Shown piece after piece: positions 2,112 to 8,682 of a stretch of 8,682 nucleotides of DNA; the first letter of the stretch is position 1; each line of letters starts with the position of its first letter. The stretch is taken from the IMG/VR virus record IMGVR_UViG_2734482774_000009, one strand, 5' to 3'. This DNA comes from a virus. Taxonomy: Duplodnaviria > Heunggongvirae > Uroviricota > Caudoviricetes. The notes under the pieces were generated by a model. That model did not search any database. It was given only the letters and a program-made list of their open reading frames with translations, and was not told the DNA's origin. Made by a program: the position numbers and the translations under genes.

Positions 2112-2525
2112 TCAGATGGTTTTCAGTATGCGATCGATGTCGCCGTCATCGCCCTGGTTTCTGCCATCGTATGCCATGCCAGCTGATACGGCTTGCGGGC
2201 TGTGCATGTCCATAAAGTTTTCAAAGGCTGCGGTAAGTTCCGGCGCAACCTTCGGACGTTCCTGCTCTATGGTCATGCTAAGGATGCTTTTAGCCGTACC
2301 AACATCGATACAAGGCACGTTTGCCATTGCACGCAACAGCGGCTGATAGTCTTTATGCTCATGAAGCGCCATAATCGCATCAGCGCGCGGCTTGTCCTGC
2401 TCTTCCAGTTTGTTTAGTTGATATACGGCCTCATAGGTTGATAAACCTCTGTCAGCCATTGCCCGCGCTTCGGCTTTAAATTTACTCGCCAGCGGTAGCG
2501 TCATGATGCTTTCATTCGTTGCCAT
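2112..2525 (-). CDS. Hypothetical 137-aa protein, last gene of the capsid operon
   Basis: ATG at 2525 with GGGGGA Shine-Dalgarno; 12 bp downstream of the gpD-like stop. Acidic C-terminus (DDGDIDRILKTI). No family recognised. Confidence 0.6.
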   Translation of the reverse strand: MATNESIMTLPLASKFKAEARAMADRGLSTYEAVYQLNKLEEQDKPRADAIMALHEHKDYQPLLRAMANVPCIDVGTAKSILSMTIEQERPKVAPELTAAFENFMDMHSPQAVSAGMAYDGRNQGDDGDIDRILKTI

Positions 2526-2537
2526 CGTTCCCCCTGC

Positions 2538-2873
2538 TTATCGGGCCAGCGGCTGAACGGATACGCCGGAACCCGCAAAGGCGGCGCATTTTTTCGCATC
2601 GGTGTCGACGCTCTCAGGCCAGTTAACGGCGGCAATATTGAATATCCCCGTCTTGTAACACTGTGCTGATTTCTGCTTTGACGTGTCCACAGGGTACGAG
2701 GTCAGATAAACAGCCTTGCCAGATTCCTTACCATCCCACGGCTTAAACTCGCCATTGTCCGCCAGCATCAGCGGGGTAAATTCCTGAATAACGCCAGCAT
2801 CAGCGGCAAAATGTACCAGCGTCGTGGCGACCTGCTGACTGCCTGCAAATAACTCAATGTATGGAGTGTCCAT
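2538..2873 (-). CDS. Head decoration protein, lambda gpD-like (111 aa)
   Basis: Motifs shared with lambda gpD as recalled: TPLML(A/D), WDG, YK(T/S)G(I/T)F, WPE, KK(C/R)(A/T)AFAG; same length class (lambda D is 110 aa). GGGGGGA Shine-Dalgarno before ATG 2873. Confidence 0.85.
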   Translation of the reverse strand: MDTPYIELFAGSQQVATTLVHFAADAGVIQEFTPLMLADNGEFKPWDGKESGKAVYLTSYPVDTSKQKSAQCYKTGIFNIAAVNWPESVDTDAKKCAAFAGSGVSVQPLAR

Positions 2874-2885
2874 AGAATCCCCCCG

Positions 2886-3941
2886 TTAACCAATTTTGAC
2901 GGTAACAAATTTGCGAATATCTGCCGGTACCGGCTGCGGTGCACTGTGTGTCTGCACGTACTCAATCGCCGGATCGCCGTCCTCAATCCAGTTTTTCGGG
3001 TAAAACATGTTTTGTGTTGCGCCCGTTCTTACCGCTTCCTGATCCATTATCGCACCATAGGCCACCAGCCCTTTATTGTTGGTGTTGCCCAGAACCAGCA
3101 AATCAGGCTCAAGGAAATATTTTTCTGTGCCGTCGCTGTCAGCGTATTTGCCGGAATAGACGATAAGGGCAATATCGCCCAGATAGCCTTTAAAGCTCAC
3201 CACTTCGCCCAGGTTTTTACAGGCCAGTTCTGCGGCGGATTCTGAACCACGGGAAAGATCGTACAGCTCACGGAATTTTTTAAAGCTGCGTAACGTGCGC
3301 CATACCTCAGCGCCCATAATCATGACGTTTGCGGGGCAACCAGCCTGATCAGCATAAAGCTCGATGTCATAGATTGGGTCGTGCATCTCTTTATCCTGCT
3401 CGGACCATTTTTTACCCTTGCCCTGCTCTATGATGCAGTTTTCCGGTATTTTCCAGTCTATTTCATAGCGTTCTATGCCTTCGCCCTCAATAATGTTTTT
3501 TCCGGTCGTTATCGCATTCACCGCCAGCCATTCCACGCGCGCTTTAATGGCGTTTACCTGGCGGCGCATGTTGCCAGTAATCAGGCGCATACGTCGGTAG
3601 GTAGGGTCGTTAAGCTGTGCCGGATCTTCTCCAGCCATGCGCATGATGGTTTTTGTTGGATCGATTTCGTGCTTTGGCTTCATGTAGCCAGGTTTAATCG
3701 TGCTGGTTTCGTATCCTTTATCGCGCTGTACCTGGCTGCCAACCATAGGCGAACAAAACGCCGACATGGTGACTTCTTCAATGTCCAGGGTATCCAGCAT
3801 GATGTTTTGGGTGCTGAATGTCGCCACGTTCGGGAAAAACAGCGTGGTAAACAGCGGACTGAATTTAAATTCCGCAATATCCCCGCGATTCAGGTACGCA
3901 AAAAGCTGGTTAGTGTTAAGTGCCGTTGCTTTGCCTGCCAT
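2886..3941 (-). CDS. Major capsid protein, lambda gpE family (351 aa)
   Basis: Blocks matching lambda gpE as recalled: FKF(S/D)PLF, PGY(M/V)KPKHE(I/V), DP(T/A)YRR(M/R)R(L/I)I, VLGNT, YPKNW; similar length (lambda E is 341 aa). TAATG overlap with the upstream 68-aa gene; GGGGGTGA Shine-Dalgarno. Confidence 0.9.
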   Translation of the reverse strand: MAGKATALNTNQLFAYLNRGDIAEFKFSPLFTTLFFPNVATFSTQNIMLDTLDIEEVTMSAFCSPMVGSQVQRDKGYETSTIKPGYMKPKHEIDPTKTIMRMAGEDPAQLNDPTYRRMRLITGNMRRQVNAIKARVEWLAVNAITTGKNIIEGEGIERYEIDWKIPENCIIEQGKGKKWSEQDKEMHDPIYDIELYADQAGCPANVMIMGAEVWRTLRSFKKFRELYDLSRGSESAAELACKNLGEVVSFKGYLGDIALIVYSGKYADSDGTEKYFLEPDLLVLGNTNNKGLVAYGAIMDQEAVRTGATQNMFYPKNWIEDGDPAIEYVQTHSAPQPVPADIRKFVTVKIG

Positions 3942-5106: not shown

Positions 5107-5153
5107 TTATTTTCACCCCCTCGTTTAAAAAGTTTTTAGTTGTGCCTCCCCCC

Positions 5154-5382
5154 CTCTACCCATCTACCCGAATGCTCATCATGTCAGTAATGGCGCGGCT
5201 TTCAGCGGGTAGATAGCTTTTTGAGCTCCTCTACCTGCCGTCTACCCTGCTACCTGAAACTGATAAAATCAGGTAGAAGAGGTAGAGAGCTTTTATTAGC
5301 CTTCTACCTGGCCCTCTACCCACTTATCATGTTGAATAATATGTATTTATTTCATTCAGGTAGATGGGGTAGAGGGCTTTTA
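5154..5382. repeat. Putative replication origin: iteron array plus AT-rich segment
   Basis: At least 11 copies of the hexamer core TCTACC / GGTAGA in both orientations within about 225 bp, where about 4 would be expected by chance in the whole window. Three extended copies GGTAGA-nnGCTTTT at about 5208, 5281 and 5368. AT-rich stretch at 5326-5357. Lies immediately downstream of the primase stop (5390). Confidence 0.65.
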
Positions 5383-5389
5383 CAAAAAA

Positions 5390-7138
5390 TTATAAAAACG
5401 CGTCGCAATCGTCTGTTGTAATTGCGTTGGTCTGCGTTACTCCCTTAACTTTTCGCGTAATATATTCATGCCCGTAAACTTTCGCCGCTGGCTTCATGGC
5501 CTTGCTGAACTCAGCCACGTTTAGCGGTTTGCTCCTGCCTGCGTATGCCATAAACGCCAGATAGACGCGGTAAAGGCTGTTCCTGGTCGTGTACTTCACT
5601 GAATCACCACCGCCACCCATCATCAGGCCGCGCGCTTCCTCCAGAAAATTCAGGAACTGGCAAAACTCAATAACCGGATCCGTCTGTTGCTTTATTGCCA
5701 GTGCTTCATCACCGTCACGCTGTTCCAGTAGTAAAGCCCTCGCCTTTTCAGGGTCGGTAAAGTTCGCCAGCAAGCGGCGGATAATAACGGGGATTTCAGC
5801 CGCAATTTTTTCCGGTAGTTCCCTGTCTTTTTCGGCCTCACTAACAATATTGTCGAAACGGAAAATCACGCGACGACGTGCCACACCTCCGGCCCGTTCG
5901 GTGAATATCATCGGGTTATTATTGGTCGCCAGCACCACCGCCCTGATTACCGCCGTGAAACGCTTTTCATATTTCGGGTTTATTTCCACGGGGTCGCCGC
6001 CCGTGATTTTCTTGATGCCCGTTCCTTCGCCTGTATATTTCGGCTGGTCTGCCAGGACGATAAGACGACTCCCGACAACCTGCGCACGTCCACCAGCATC
6101 ATCAAGCGATGTCATTTCAGCGCTTACCGTGTTCTGTTTCCCTGCCAGAAGGCTGGCTATGTGTGTGAATGTACTTTTACCGCTCCCGCCGTCTCCGGTG
6201 GCCTCAATAAACATCTGCCAGTCGTACCGGTTCGCCATAATCATGTACAGCGCGGCACATATACGCATCATCTTGCGCGGGTCTTTTCCGGCTGCGTGAT
6301 CAAGCCATTTATGAAAGTTTGGCGCGTTGTCGCGGATATTCTCCCCTGGTGCTGGTGGCGTGTATTCAATGCCGTTGTGCGTGGTGATCCAGTTCTCCGG
6401 CGTGTGCGGGGAAAATTCCCCTGTTTTCAGGTCAAGCGCACCATTGGCGAACGGCAACAAATCGCCGGACGGCTCGCCCATTGGTTCGGCAATAACTTTT
6501 AATGCTTCCACGGCGTTATTGATTACGCGCTTGCTGAAAGTGGCCCTGTGCTCTGAATAGATCGCCACCATTTCGCGGCTAAGTTCCATTGTGCTGACCG
6601 GACACCATACCCCGCCGCGCCATACGTGAACGATTTCACTTTCCGGATGCACACAAACGCCATCAAATCGACCAGCAAGCATCTGTGCGCGCTCACTGTC
6701 TGCCATTTGTGCCAGTTGCGTATTTTTCTGCTCCGGCATGGTAAGCCCTGCGGCAATATTTTCACGCTCAGCATTCAGATAGCGCCGCCAGTTTTCACAC
6801 TTCTGGACGTGCATTCCTTCGTGGTAAAAATTTGCGTCCTGAATATCTGCCGCCGCCAGCTTCTGACCAATCTTTTTGGTCTCCACTAAATCCAGTTCTC
6901 CGGCCTGGTACAGCCTTACGCGCTTTTTCCCATCCGGAACAATTTTCAGCGCATCAAGTTCGGCAAGCTGCTTTGGCCCAAGCCACACAGGCGGCACATT
7001 ATCGCCGGATGCGGGGCCATCCTGCTCCTGCCATTGTTTCGCGTGCGACCAGGCATCACTACCCGCAAAGATAATTACCTCTGTGTCTTTGTGTTTTATT
7101 CCGCGTGGCTGTTTTTTTACGTTCGGTGCCAGTTTCAT
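5390..7138 (-). CDS. Replication initiator: P4-type primase/helicase (582 aa)
   Basis: Walker A ATGDGGSGKSTF and Walker-B-like LIVLADQ in the C-terminal half, with an N-terminal primase-like region, as in P4 alpha / PICI Pri-Rep-type proteins (recalled). AGGGG Shine-Dalgarno; ATGA overlap with the upstream 99-aa gene. Confidence 0.85.
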   Translation of the reverse strand: MKLAPNVKKQPRGIKHKDTEVIIFAGSDAWSHAKQWQEQDGPASGDNVPPVWLGPKQLAELDALKIVPDGKKRVRLYQAGELDLVETKKIGQKLAAADIQDANFYHEGMHVQKCENWRRYLNAERENIAAGLTMPEQKNTQLAQMADSERAQMLAGRFDGVCVHPESEIVHVWRGGVWCPVSTMELSREMVAIYSEHRATFSKRVINNAVEALKVIAEPMGEPSGDLLPFANGALDLKTGEFSPHTPENWITTHNGIEYTPPAPGENIRDNAPNFHKWLDHAAGKDPRKMMRICAALYMIMANRYDWQMFIEATGDGGSGKSTFTHIASLLAGKQNTVSAEMTSLDDAGGRAQVVGSRLIVLADQPKYTGEGTGIKKITGGDPVEINPKYEKRFTAVIRAVVLATNNNPMIFTERAGGVARRRVIFRFDNIVSEAEKDRELPEKIAAEIPVIIRRLLANFTDPEKARALLLEQRDGDEALAIKQQTDPVIEFCQFLNFLEEARGLMMGGGGDSVKYTTRNSLYRVYLAFMAYAGRSKPLNVAEFSKAMKPAAKVYGHEYITRKVKGVTQTNAITTDDCDAFL

Positions 7139-7896: not shown

Positions 7897-8119
7897 GGTG
7901 TACCCCTCCGCATTTTTTTTCGTTAGAAATAAGCGTTCTTCTTTCCTGTTCATCGCTCAGGAATACGCAGACCTCACCGCTAAGGCGTTTAAGTAAGCCG
8001 ATGATTGCCCCTGATTCGCTGTCGGTCATCATGCCAGGGTAATCCTCTGCCAGTGCGCAAATAACTTCGATTTGGTGGGCGCGTTCTGCTGCCTGCTGTA
8101 GTGTGATTTCCTGACTCAT
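7886..8119 (-). CDS. Hypothetical 77-aa protein
   Basis: Track ORF begins with a TTG at 8176; the internal ATG at 8119 has a GGGGG Shine-Dalgarno and an ATGA overlap with the upstream 64-aa gene stop. Confidence 0.5.
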   Translation of the reverse strand: MSQEITLQQAAERAHQIEVICALAEDYPGMMTDSESGAIIGLLKRLSGEVCVFLSDEQERRTLISNEKKCGGVHHVQ

Positions 8120-8310
8120 AAGCCTACCCCCTGACGAATACGGGCGGCGAATACAGCCACACAACCGGACGGGCAACGGCTACGCGCTTCGCGTTCCGTC
8201 CAGGCGGTGACGTGGATGATTTGAGATTCTCCGGCACTCAGGGCCAGAAAACGCCACACAAAGGCAGTTTGTGTGTGTACAAGGTGTGGTATATGATTTA
8301 CGGCAACCAT
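8116..8310 (-). CDS. Hypothetical 64-aa protein, first gene of the replication operon
   Basis: ATG 8310 with GAGGAG Shine-Dalgarno at good spacing; no family recognised (not AlpA-like, no Ogr/Delta zinc-finger pattern). Confidence 0.5.
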   Translation of the reverse strand: MVAVNHIPHLVHTQTAFVWRFLALSAGESQIIHVTAWTEREARSRCPSGCVAVFAARIRQGVGL

Positions 8311-8377
8311 AACGGCTCCTCGTTTACGTTGTTGGTTAGAAGCCCCGTTACTGCTCCTACAGTGCGGGGTTTCGTCG

Positions 8378-8473
8378 TTTCAACACCTTGCCTAAATAAG
8401 GTGTTGAACACCAATTTAAATCGAGGTGTTAAACACGTCAAGTGTTGAACACTTATTTTTTTTCCTGCATACT
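8378..8473. promoter_or_regulatory. Divergent control region with three 11-bp palindromic operators GTGTT(G/A)AACAC and a half-site
   Basis: Sites at 8401-8411, 8426-8436, 8442-8452, plus half-site caacacc at about 8381-8387. Candidate plus-strand promoter: -35 TTGAAC (8445-8450, inside operator 3), 17-bp spacer, -10 CATACT (8468-8473). Confidence 0.55.
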
Positions 8474-8502
8474 GCATTTGTTTTTTATGAGGGGTGCTCA
8501 AC

Positions 8503-8682
8503 ATGGCGACAAAAGCAGTAAACGCAAAATCACAAACAGTTGCGGCAAGGGTTCCACATGAAGTTATGAACAATGTTGAGGCGGTAAAAATGCCCGGCGA
8601 AAGTACAGGGCAGTTTGTTACAGCTGCATTAAAGCGGGAAGTTGAATACCGCCAGCGTCGCAAGGCCAAAGAATCAGAATAA
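8503..8682 (+). CDS. Small DNA-binding regulator, ribbon-helix-helix (Arc/CopG-like) candidate, 59 aa
   Basis: ATG 8503 with GAGGGG Shine-Dalgarno 8 nt upstream (track ORF starts at a GTG at 8494). Pattern TVAARVPHEV (beta-strand) - MNNVEAV (helix) - G - STGQFVTAALKREV (helix) fits an RHH fold; basic C-terminal tail. Only gene transcribed away from the minus-strand operons. Confidence 0.5.
   Translation: MATKAVNAKSQTVAARVPHEVMNNVEAVKMPGESTGQFVTAALKREVEYRQRRKAKESE

Follow-up and report, generated by a model that had tools for sequence, protein, structure and literature searches.

A probable YlcI repressor and its co-varying operators in the divergent control region of an EcCICFT073-type phage satellite

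INTRODUCTION

Which protein acts on the three near-identical palindromes that separate two divergent genes near the right end of an 8,682-bp stretch of viral DNA (IMG/VR record IMGVR_UViG_2734482774_000009), and what would it control from there? The stretch, analyzed at its full length, is referred to below as the window. At positions 8378-8505, transcription to the left leads into an operon that begins with an icd-like gene and includes a primase gene, and transcription to the right leads into a gene for a 59-amino-acid (aa) protein related to YlcI of Escherichia coli K-12. Our analysis of the window and its relatives makes it probable, for the model taken as a whole, that an E. coli phage satellite, a Gram-negative phage-inducible chromosomal island (PICI) of the EcCICFT073 type, has its divergent promoter-operator region at 8378-8505; that the 59-aa protein is a predicted ribbon-helix-helix (RHH) DNA-binding protein; and that it serves as an autoregulated repressor of the satellite's early (icd-like/primase) operon.

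As of 2018, whether a global repressor exists in Gram-negative PICIs was considered unclear (PMC6092414), and later work treats activation by AlpA as the whole story (PMC11773190, PMC10111431). The searchable literature contains no functional study of the YlcI/YnfO family, reports no function for YlcI or YnfO of K-12, and offers no description of a ylcI-operator module in PICIs, EcCICFT073 included. A small RHH repressor on promoter-overlapping operators is in itself conventional; no such silencer has been described for EcCICFT073-type PICIs.

RESULTS

Three sites on two divergent promoters

The three sites share the form GTGTT(G/A)AACAC and are exact at 8401-8411 (site 1, GTGTTGAACAC), 8426-8436 (site 2, GTGTTAAACAC), and 8442-8452 (site 3, GTGTTGAACAC). 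Their centers fall at 8406, 8431, and 8447, reproducing the spacings of 25 and 16 bp that an earlier sequence-only reading of this DNA had claimed, and a repeat finder groups them as a single family of 13-nucleotide (nt) copies. Searching both strands of the whole window with up to one mismatch yields six matches, which are the same three places counted on both strands and none elsewhere. The mean expectation from dinucleotide-preserving shuffles is 0.28 matches, and none of 200 shuffles reaches six. The related islands, whose loci are numbered L001, L002, L003, and so on, are likewise free of further sites, except for one single-mismatch match within alpA of L002, which lies within chance expectation.

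All three sites fall on core promoter elements. The sole sigma-70-like promoter returned by a consensus scan is on the minus strand at 8413-8441 and belongs to the icd-like/replication operon; it combines a -35 element, TTGACG (8441-8436), and a -10 element, TAAATT (8418-8413), across a 17-bp spacer. Site 1 begins two bases below this -10, over the predicted transcription start, and site 2 lies within the spacer and touches the -35. The same scan finds an equivalent TTGACG-17-TAATAT in L003, even though the surrounding sequence differs, and GTCAA is kept at -66 from the ylcI ATG in most loci. On the plus strand, a candidate ylcI promoter at 8445-8473, read by eye, would pair TTGAAC (8445-8450) with CATACT (8468-8473) across another 17-bp spacer; the loci keep either TATACT or CATACT at -36 relative to the ATG. 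The -35 elements of the two promoters stand back to back, and that of ylcI is contained in site 3, as expected from the earlier claim that a palindrome covers the candidate plus-strand -35.

An additional half-site had been proposed. Its sequence (TTCAACACC, 8379-8387) is real, but less well explained as an operator half-site than as the left arm of a conserved inverted repeat with perfect 11-bp arms (8379-8389 and 8398-8408) and an 8-nt loop, the right arm overlapping site 1. Stems equivalent to 8379-8408, of other sequence, are present in most related loci. G-U asymmetry gives no clear strand preference for this repeat (summed minimum free energies of -183.7 for the plus strand and -191.8 for the minus strand). 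The repeat probably forms a 5'-terminal hairpin in the leftward mRNA; alternatively, it may be a second protein site.

The YlcI-like protein

The ylcI-like gene occupies 8503-8682 on the plus strand, with its ATG at 8503, its stop codon at 8680-8682, and a GAGGGG Shine-Dalgarno sequence at 8490-8495. Its product belongs to the YlcI/YnfO family NF041551 of NCBIfam (59.7 bits against a cutoff of 30; E = 2.1e-16; residues 9-50) and matches phrog_949 (E = 6.5e-22). Between the window and L001, 14 of 177 nucleotides in ylcI differ, 13 of them at third codon positions and with a single amino acid change, indicating that the gene is coding and under purifying selection.

The predicted fold of YlcI, an N-terminal beta-strand followed by two helices, is structurally similar to that of solved RHH proteins, and it is on this prediction that we regard YlcI as a probable RHH protein. 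Profile searches are silent on the point: a Pfam scan of YlcI and 40 homologues gave no significant match to an RHH model. The matches were faint: 5 of the 40 members hit CB_ParB_C (best E = 0.15) and 2 hit PSK_trans_fac (E = 0.03). A sequence profile search of the PDB returned no match. Residues K9, S10, and R16 are invariant, and residues 11-15 (QTVAA in the window) form the only hypervariable segment of the protein. A tblastn search of 50,697 phage records for a YlcI homologue found no match and thus gives no evidence for one encoded by a helper phage.

The annotation of these genes in public records is uneven, as seen in L001 (12314-12715), L039 (3271-3789 and 3674-3979), and L042 (8474-9053). 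The Prokaryotic Genome Annotation Pipeline (PGAP) extends the coding sequence of the Icd-like protein, and in L039 also that of ylcI, across the whole operator region. In strain CFT073, the ylcI and icd-like genes bear late-added locus tags (C_RS30120 and C_RS30125); the annotation on which the PICI literature drew probably lacked both genes, a possible reason for their having gone unnoticed.

Covariation of protein and sites

If YlcI binds the sites, changes in the protein should be matched by changes in the DNA. We collected 35 loci from species-representative genomes (Edwardsiella, Pectobacterium, Kosakonia, Dryocola, Yokenella, Limnobaculum, Serratia, Leclercia, Xenorhabdus, Proteus, Tenebrionibacter, Klebsiella, and others) and tabulated 30 of them together with the window; a further 80 IMG/VR loci served as an out-of-sample check, for a total of about 110 related loci in more than 12 genera. 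In almost every locus with an intact control region, copies of one 11-mer lie near -102, -77, and -32 relative to the ylcI start codon, the first two positions being those of sites 1 and 2 in the window. The sequence of the 11-mer tracks YlcI residues 11-15 one-to-one, giving at least 13 protein/site pairs.

Among the genome contigs, QT[VIL]AA is paired with GTGTTGAACAC, (K/R)KLEA with GTGTCAGCCAC, KRFDV with GTGTC(C/G)GACAC, QSLKS with GTGTGGCCCAC, QKLQ(A/T) with GTGGACTCCAC, QKMSA with CTGGCACCCA, QKIQA with TGGA(G/T)T(A/C)CA, and QKTSV with GTGnnGGACAC; in EcCICFT073 itself, QALKA is paired with GTGTGGCCCAC. The pairing rule was upheld in the 80 IMG/VR loci, which added three pairs: KKIDV with GTGTCAGACAC, KRIDA with GTGTCGGACAC, and QSVTA with GTGTAAGACAC. 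In the QSVTA pair, one of the sites is inverted. The sites of the KKLEA class are invariant in ten distinct sequences from four genera, and the spacers between them vary.

Across alleles, the outer GTG and CAC of the sites are nearly constant and the inner 5 bp are variable. Constant flanks around a variable center, combined with invariant K9, S10, and R16 around variable residues 11-15, form the pattern expected if an RHH beta-ribbon reads the center of the site, and we propose from these alignments that beta-strand residues 11-15 are the specificity determinants. The QSVTA allele (L096, L104, and L107) is informative in another way, in that reading site 1 (GTGTAAGACAC) on the opposite strand gives the sequence of sites 2 and 3 (GTGTCTTACAC). 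This inversion fits a protein-binding site rather than a transcribed signal, and indicates that non-palindromic sites can be used in either orientation.

The location of the third site also varies with the allele. In most alleles it lies at -32, where it overlaps the ylcI promoter at the final bases of the -10 and at the start. In the QTVAA group, which includes the window, the -32 site has been lost (CTGCATTTGTT) and is replaced by a site at -61 on the -35, a position specific to the QT[VIL]AA allele group; L008 has both. Either position predicts autorepression of ylcI.

Limits of the variable module

The region that changes with the sites is narrow. The closest relatives of the window (98.5% identity) align up to 8345 only. 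Compared with L003, the window is 97 to 100% identical up to 8330 and then 37 to 67% identical across most of the hairpin, the operators, and ylcI; two 30-bp blocks within ylcI stand at 73 to 80%, and the last 33 nt of the gene are identical. In place of SQTVAAR, the YlcI beta-strand of L003 reads SKKLEAR, and this locus carries three copies of GTGTCAGCCAC, not GTGTTGAACAC. Since the variable module spans only about 8331-8630, YlcI is the only protein inside it.

The neighboring genes do not follow the sites. The same AlpA (WP_000953271.1) is common to L002, which has the window's sites, and L003, which has others, and the window and L003 share near-identical Icd-like proteins, small open reading frames (ORFs), and primases despite their different sites. 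Locus L002 contains the window's module at 100% identity but encodes a RepA-type helicase in place of the primase. The small ORFs downstream of ylcI vary between loci or are absent. No gene product but YlcI accompanies the sites in these comparisons, and neither AlpA nor the Icd-like protein nor the primase co-varies with them. A recent insertion of the module into satellites lacking ylcI was considered and rejected, as loci that match in the leader only also carry a ylcI of another allele.

The sequence-only reading had allowed for a longer repressor beyond 8682. None is present in the relatives, whose DNA past the equivalent of 8682 contains only small unknown ORFs, a 62-aa AlpA, and an integrase. 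The core of that reading, in which an operator region separates a small RHH-like regulator from the replication operon, is supported by the family match, the predicted fold, the promoter overlap, and the covariation of protein and sites.

A candidate antisense RNA next to the sites

Adjacent to the sites, the plus strand at 8292-8381 may encode a small cis-antisense RNA directed against the translation start of the icd-like gene. This candidate consists of a -10-like TATGAT (8292-8297), hairpin A (8306-8336), and hairpin B (8339-8373), followed by a T-rich, terminator-like tail. The loop of hairpin A is an anti-Shine-Dalgarno CTCC, and its stem includes the complement of the icd-like start codon; hairpin B is called a plus-strand terminator by a scan of L003.

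In 24 distinct loci, the plus strand always folds into a much stabler structure than the minus strand (about -35 versus -23 kcal/mol). The 25 consensus pairs are paired in 95.2% of cases and 17 of the 25 are compensatory, and none of 500 shuffles reaches any of these measures; slid controls pair at about 40%. The G-U cells are similarly one-sided, with 86 valid on the plus strand only versus 3 on the minus strand only. Each of the 24 loci has a TAnnnT hexamer about 15 nt upstream of hairpin A (14 to 15 nt before the anchor motif). This conserved -10-like hexamer lies inside the icd-like coding sequence, such that coding and promoter constraint are not fully separable, and the only -35 found to go with it is weak (TTGTGT in the window). 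The structure is a candidate for a new cis-antisense RNA of about 75 nt against the icd-like start, as judged from folding and base-pair covariation.

In some Gram-negative PICIs, C4 or isrK RNAs are encoded in a "dynamic zone" between alpA and the replication genes (PMC10111431), and the candidate occupies the same position. Identity with C4 (RF01695) or isrK (RF01394) was rejected, neither model being matched by the whole window at E values up to 1 or by 8230-8520 at E values up to 10. At these thresholds, Rfam provided no family for the antisense RNA, only chance-level matches.

The island and its other features

The window is most of an EcCICFT073-type PICI, as its gene order matches that of the prototype: int, alpA, a small ORF and ylcI on the opposite strand, icd-like, small ORFs, DUF4222, primase, SSB, PerC, capsid, and decoration. 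In the window, the leftward operon begins with the icd-like gene (8116-8310, minus strand; 64 aa; NF033153, 64.7 bits), and Pfam matches identify a DUF4222 protein, after several small ORFs, and a D5_N/DUF5906 primase (5390-7138, minus strand). Labels for the Icd-like protein conflict, with phrog_1743 and phrog_6196 of PHROG naming it a transcriptional repressor and NCBIfam a cell-division inhibitor. Farther to the left, the minus strand encodes SSB and lambda-E-like major capsid, head-decoration, and small-terminase-like proteins. As in the PICI definition (PMC6092414), the primase is followed by an iteron-containing, AT-rich, origin-like region; the captured capsid genes are as in EcCICFT073, and tail and lysis genes are absent.

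The island appears to be inserted in the host gene tqsA, for an autoinducer 2 (AI-2) transporter, as in its relatives L001 and L003. The left end of the window is a 5' fragment of tqsA (ORF 1-153, broken near 145-153). The right end is the ylcI stop codon, which would place the alpA/int end outside the window; in tqsA-integrated E. coli relatives, this end comprises the small unknown ORFs, the 62-aa AlpA (PF05930), and a tyrosine integrase, and in the closest relatives the remainder of tqsA is found there together with alpA and int. The synteny of leftward pri and icd, rightward ylcI, and leftward alpA and int is kept in at least 25 of 32 loci, and islands carrying the module are widespread, occurring in hundreds of E. 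coli genomes, roughly 760 in all.

Other structured regions occur in the window. Just downstream of the primase gene, 5150-5380 contains dense iterons, CTCTACC/GGTAGAG in both orientations, around an AT-rich center; judged by its sequence, the region looks like a PICI replication origin, and a long hairpin within it produced a spurious microRNA match in Rfam. Close to the island end, a 24-nt direct repeat (634-657 and 757-780) and a 66-nt direct repeat (648-713 and 781-846), with spacings of 123 to 133 bp, stand upstream of an 89-aa ORF (839-1108). The apparently noncoding stretch at 437-605 has clustered long imperfect inverted repeats with arms of 26 to 33 nt, its only Rfam match being manA, below threshold (18 bits against a gathering score of 55); these repeats could be a packaging (cos) site or another structured site.

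The capsid set at 2112-3941 (minus strand) encodes a 351-aa capsid protein, a 111-aa head-decoration protein, and a 137-aa protein, in the layout of EcCICFT073 (L041, 669-2497). A weak match of the 137-aa protein to the C-terminal part of head-maturation proteases (phrog_53; E = 5e-9) suggests that it may be scaffold-like. Unlike the capsid-forming PICI (cf-PICI) relative L001, the window includes no portal, protease, or large terminase gene in this set.

DISCUSSION

Proposed mechanism

We consider it probable that YlcI silences the early operon of the satellite and limits its own synthesis. One YlcI dimer would occupy each 11-bp GTG-N5-CAC site, with the two-stranded beta-ribbon (residues 11-15) reading the variable central 5 bp and K9, S10, and R16 reading the constant flanks. 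Bound to sites 1 and 2, over the start point and in the spacer, YlcI would block RNA polymerase and keep the icd-like and replication genes off; bound to site 3, over its own -35, it would exert negative autoregulation. DNA binding, the repressive sign of the regulation, and the stoichiometry are what we infer from the sequence.

Several points weigh against this model. The operators adjoin the gene, and part of the covariation is therefore simple linkage; the force of the argument derives from the likeness of the three copies within each allele and from the narrow boundaries of the module. The plus-strand ylcI promoter is the weaker of the two and failed the consensus scan. In classical cooperative RHH arrays, centers are spaced by about 8 to 11 bp, unlike the 25 and 16 bp found here, and dimer-dimer contacts are therefore not assumed.

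How the satellite is switched on is more speculative. In EcCICFT073, helper phages induce alpA (PMC6092414), and AlpA activated in this way might drive transcription that runs leftward from beyond 8682, crosses ylcI in antisense, and enters the operon, such that the repressor is overridden or depleted. In the relatives, alpA is convergent with ylcI. A terminator scan placed terminators behind ylcI on the plus strand but none on the minus strand from alpA to the control region, which makes such read-through a plausible, if hypothetical, route. As a speculative second layer, the plus-strand antisense RNA would cover the icd-like ribosome-binding site and hold down the first gene posttranscriptionally. 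A broader proposal casts YlcI as the master repressor so far missing from Gram-negative PICIs and as the functional counterpart of Stl. Its alleles would define immunity groups, helper induction would remove it through a helper antirepressor or AlpA-driven convergent transcription across ylcI, and the antisense RNA would serve as a second lock on the icd-like gene. In this full form the proposal is possible but tentative, and we lean against it.

Alternative explanations

A first alternative accepts that YlcI binds the sites and assigns it a part after induction, as a Cro-like or homeostatic damper of the early operon or as a modulator, with quiescence due only to lack of activation by AlpA. 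In EcCICFT073, which has the same module, alpA is necessary for induction and uncontrolled replication, and its overexpression is sufficient for both (PMC6092414); moreover, the autoregulation of ylcI deduced from site position suits a homeostatic factor. Yet sites 1 and 2 occlude a promoter, TTGACG-17-TAAATT, that is near consensus and looks constitutive, and, if not blocked, this promoter would express a division-inhibitor homologue and a primase at rest. The ylcI promoter is also separate from the operon under its control. We judge a mere damper unlikely.

It is considerably less credible that the 59-aa protein acts as antitoxin in a toxin-antitoxin pair, with the palindromes as no more than its autoregulatory operator. 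A conserved downstream partner is absent across genera: nothing follows ylcI in L001 and in the Xenorhabdus loci, where the end of alpA lies about 225 nt downstream on the other strand, and elsewhere the downstream ORFs differ between loci and belong to no family. YlcI lacks a C-terminal toxin-binding extension, and two of the three conserved sites lie on the divergent promoter rather than on that of ylcI.

The chance is slimmer still that another factor (AlpA, the Icd-like protein, or a protein of the host) binds the repeats, or that they are origin iterons or packaging sites. These islands have AlpA as their known master regulator (PMC6092414), PHROGs tags relatives of the Icd-like protein as transcriptional repressors, and PICIs do have iteron origins. 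However, identical AlpA proteins coexist with different repeats (L002 versus L003), as do near-identical icd-like and primase genes (the window versus L003), and a host factor cannot explain at least 13 allele-specific site sequences. Origin iterons were rejected on three counts: different repeats accompany a near-identical primase, identical repeats accompany another replicase (L002), and a separate iteron and AT-rich origin-like region exists at about 5150-5380.

That the palindromes are a chance or nonfunctional feature, an idea with only the general frequency of short repeats behind it, is negligible given the shuffling result and the conserved positions of copies that evolve in concert in more than 100 loci.

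Significance

The prototype EcCICFT073 carries the same ylcI-operator module, and a defined repressor with defined operators would make testable the silence of the island, its switch-on by helpers, and the regulatory insulation between islands by operator specificity. The model would provide a concrete function for the uncharacterized YlcI/YnfO family, and the set of at least 13 natural protein/site pairs is ready for studying RHH recognition. Both would be useful for the biology of Gram-negative phage satellites, in which, if YlcI is indeed a master repressor, operator-specificity alleles would define satellite immunity groups.

Comparison with known systems

The sequence-only reading had likened the region to switches of the Stl/Str or cI/cro type. 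The Stl(Rpr)-Str region of Staphylococcus aureus pathogenicity islands (SaPIs) is similar in being divergent, in opposing a regulator to an excision/replication operon, and in lying between the integrase end and the primase; Stl is a large helix-turn-helix repressor encoded in the same direction as int and inactivated by helper proteins (PMC6092414). The divergence from the replication operon therefore carries over to the window; the large repressor co-oriented with int does not, as the regulator here is a 59-aa predicted RHH protein encoded convergently with alpA and int, and the known signal is helper-dependent expression of alpA. The comparison with cI/cro fails: only ylcI lies in the co-varying module, and the first leftward gene is near-identical in the window and L003, whose sites differ. 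With a single regulator that co-varies with the sites, the layout is not that of cI/Cro.

YlcI of K-12 (prophage DLP12) and YnfO (Qin) belong to the same NCBIfam family and share the RHH-like N-terminal pattern. K-12 YlcI differs in being only 22% identical and in its setting, which adjoins cos and is divergent from the small-terminase homologue nohD (L043, 6252-6834) rather than in a satellite control region.

The candidate antisense RNA recalls the immI region of phages P1 and P7 (c4 RNA-icd-ant) and the CI RNA of P4, in which a small RNA holds down the icd-type gene that heads an operon. Both the c4 and the CI RNAs are processed from the same strand as their targets, in systems without an RHH protein; unlike them, the RNA predicted here is on the opposite strand and would be a true cis-antisense RNA.

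Plasmid pMV158 combines the RHH repressor CopG with antisense RNA II, copG being cotranscribed with repB and its target a single 13-bp pseudosymmetric element. The likeness lies in the pairing of a small RHH repressor, acting at a replication operon's promoter, with a short countertranscript complementary to a downstream translation start; here the RHH gene is divergent, the sites are three in number, and the antisense RNA would cover the icd-like gene, not that of a replicase. Neither pMV158 nor the immI region of P22 has a sequence relationship to the module, and their site layouts differ from it.

By analogy, it is nevertheless the Arc/Mnt operators of P22 immI that the system would most resemble in its working. 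There, the RHH repressors Arc and Mnt act at the divergent promoters Pant and Pmnt. P22 immI and, as we read it, the satellite module have in common RHH repressors of very small size, short symmetric operators that cover the -35, the spacer, and the +1 of divergent promoters arranged back to back, negative autoregulation, and operon products that affect other phages or the host: the antirepressor in P22 and icd, ash, and ant-type genes in satellites.

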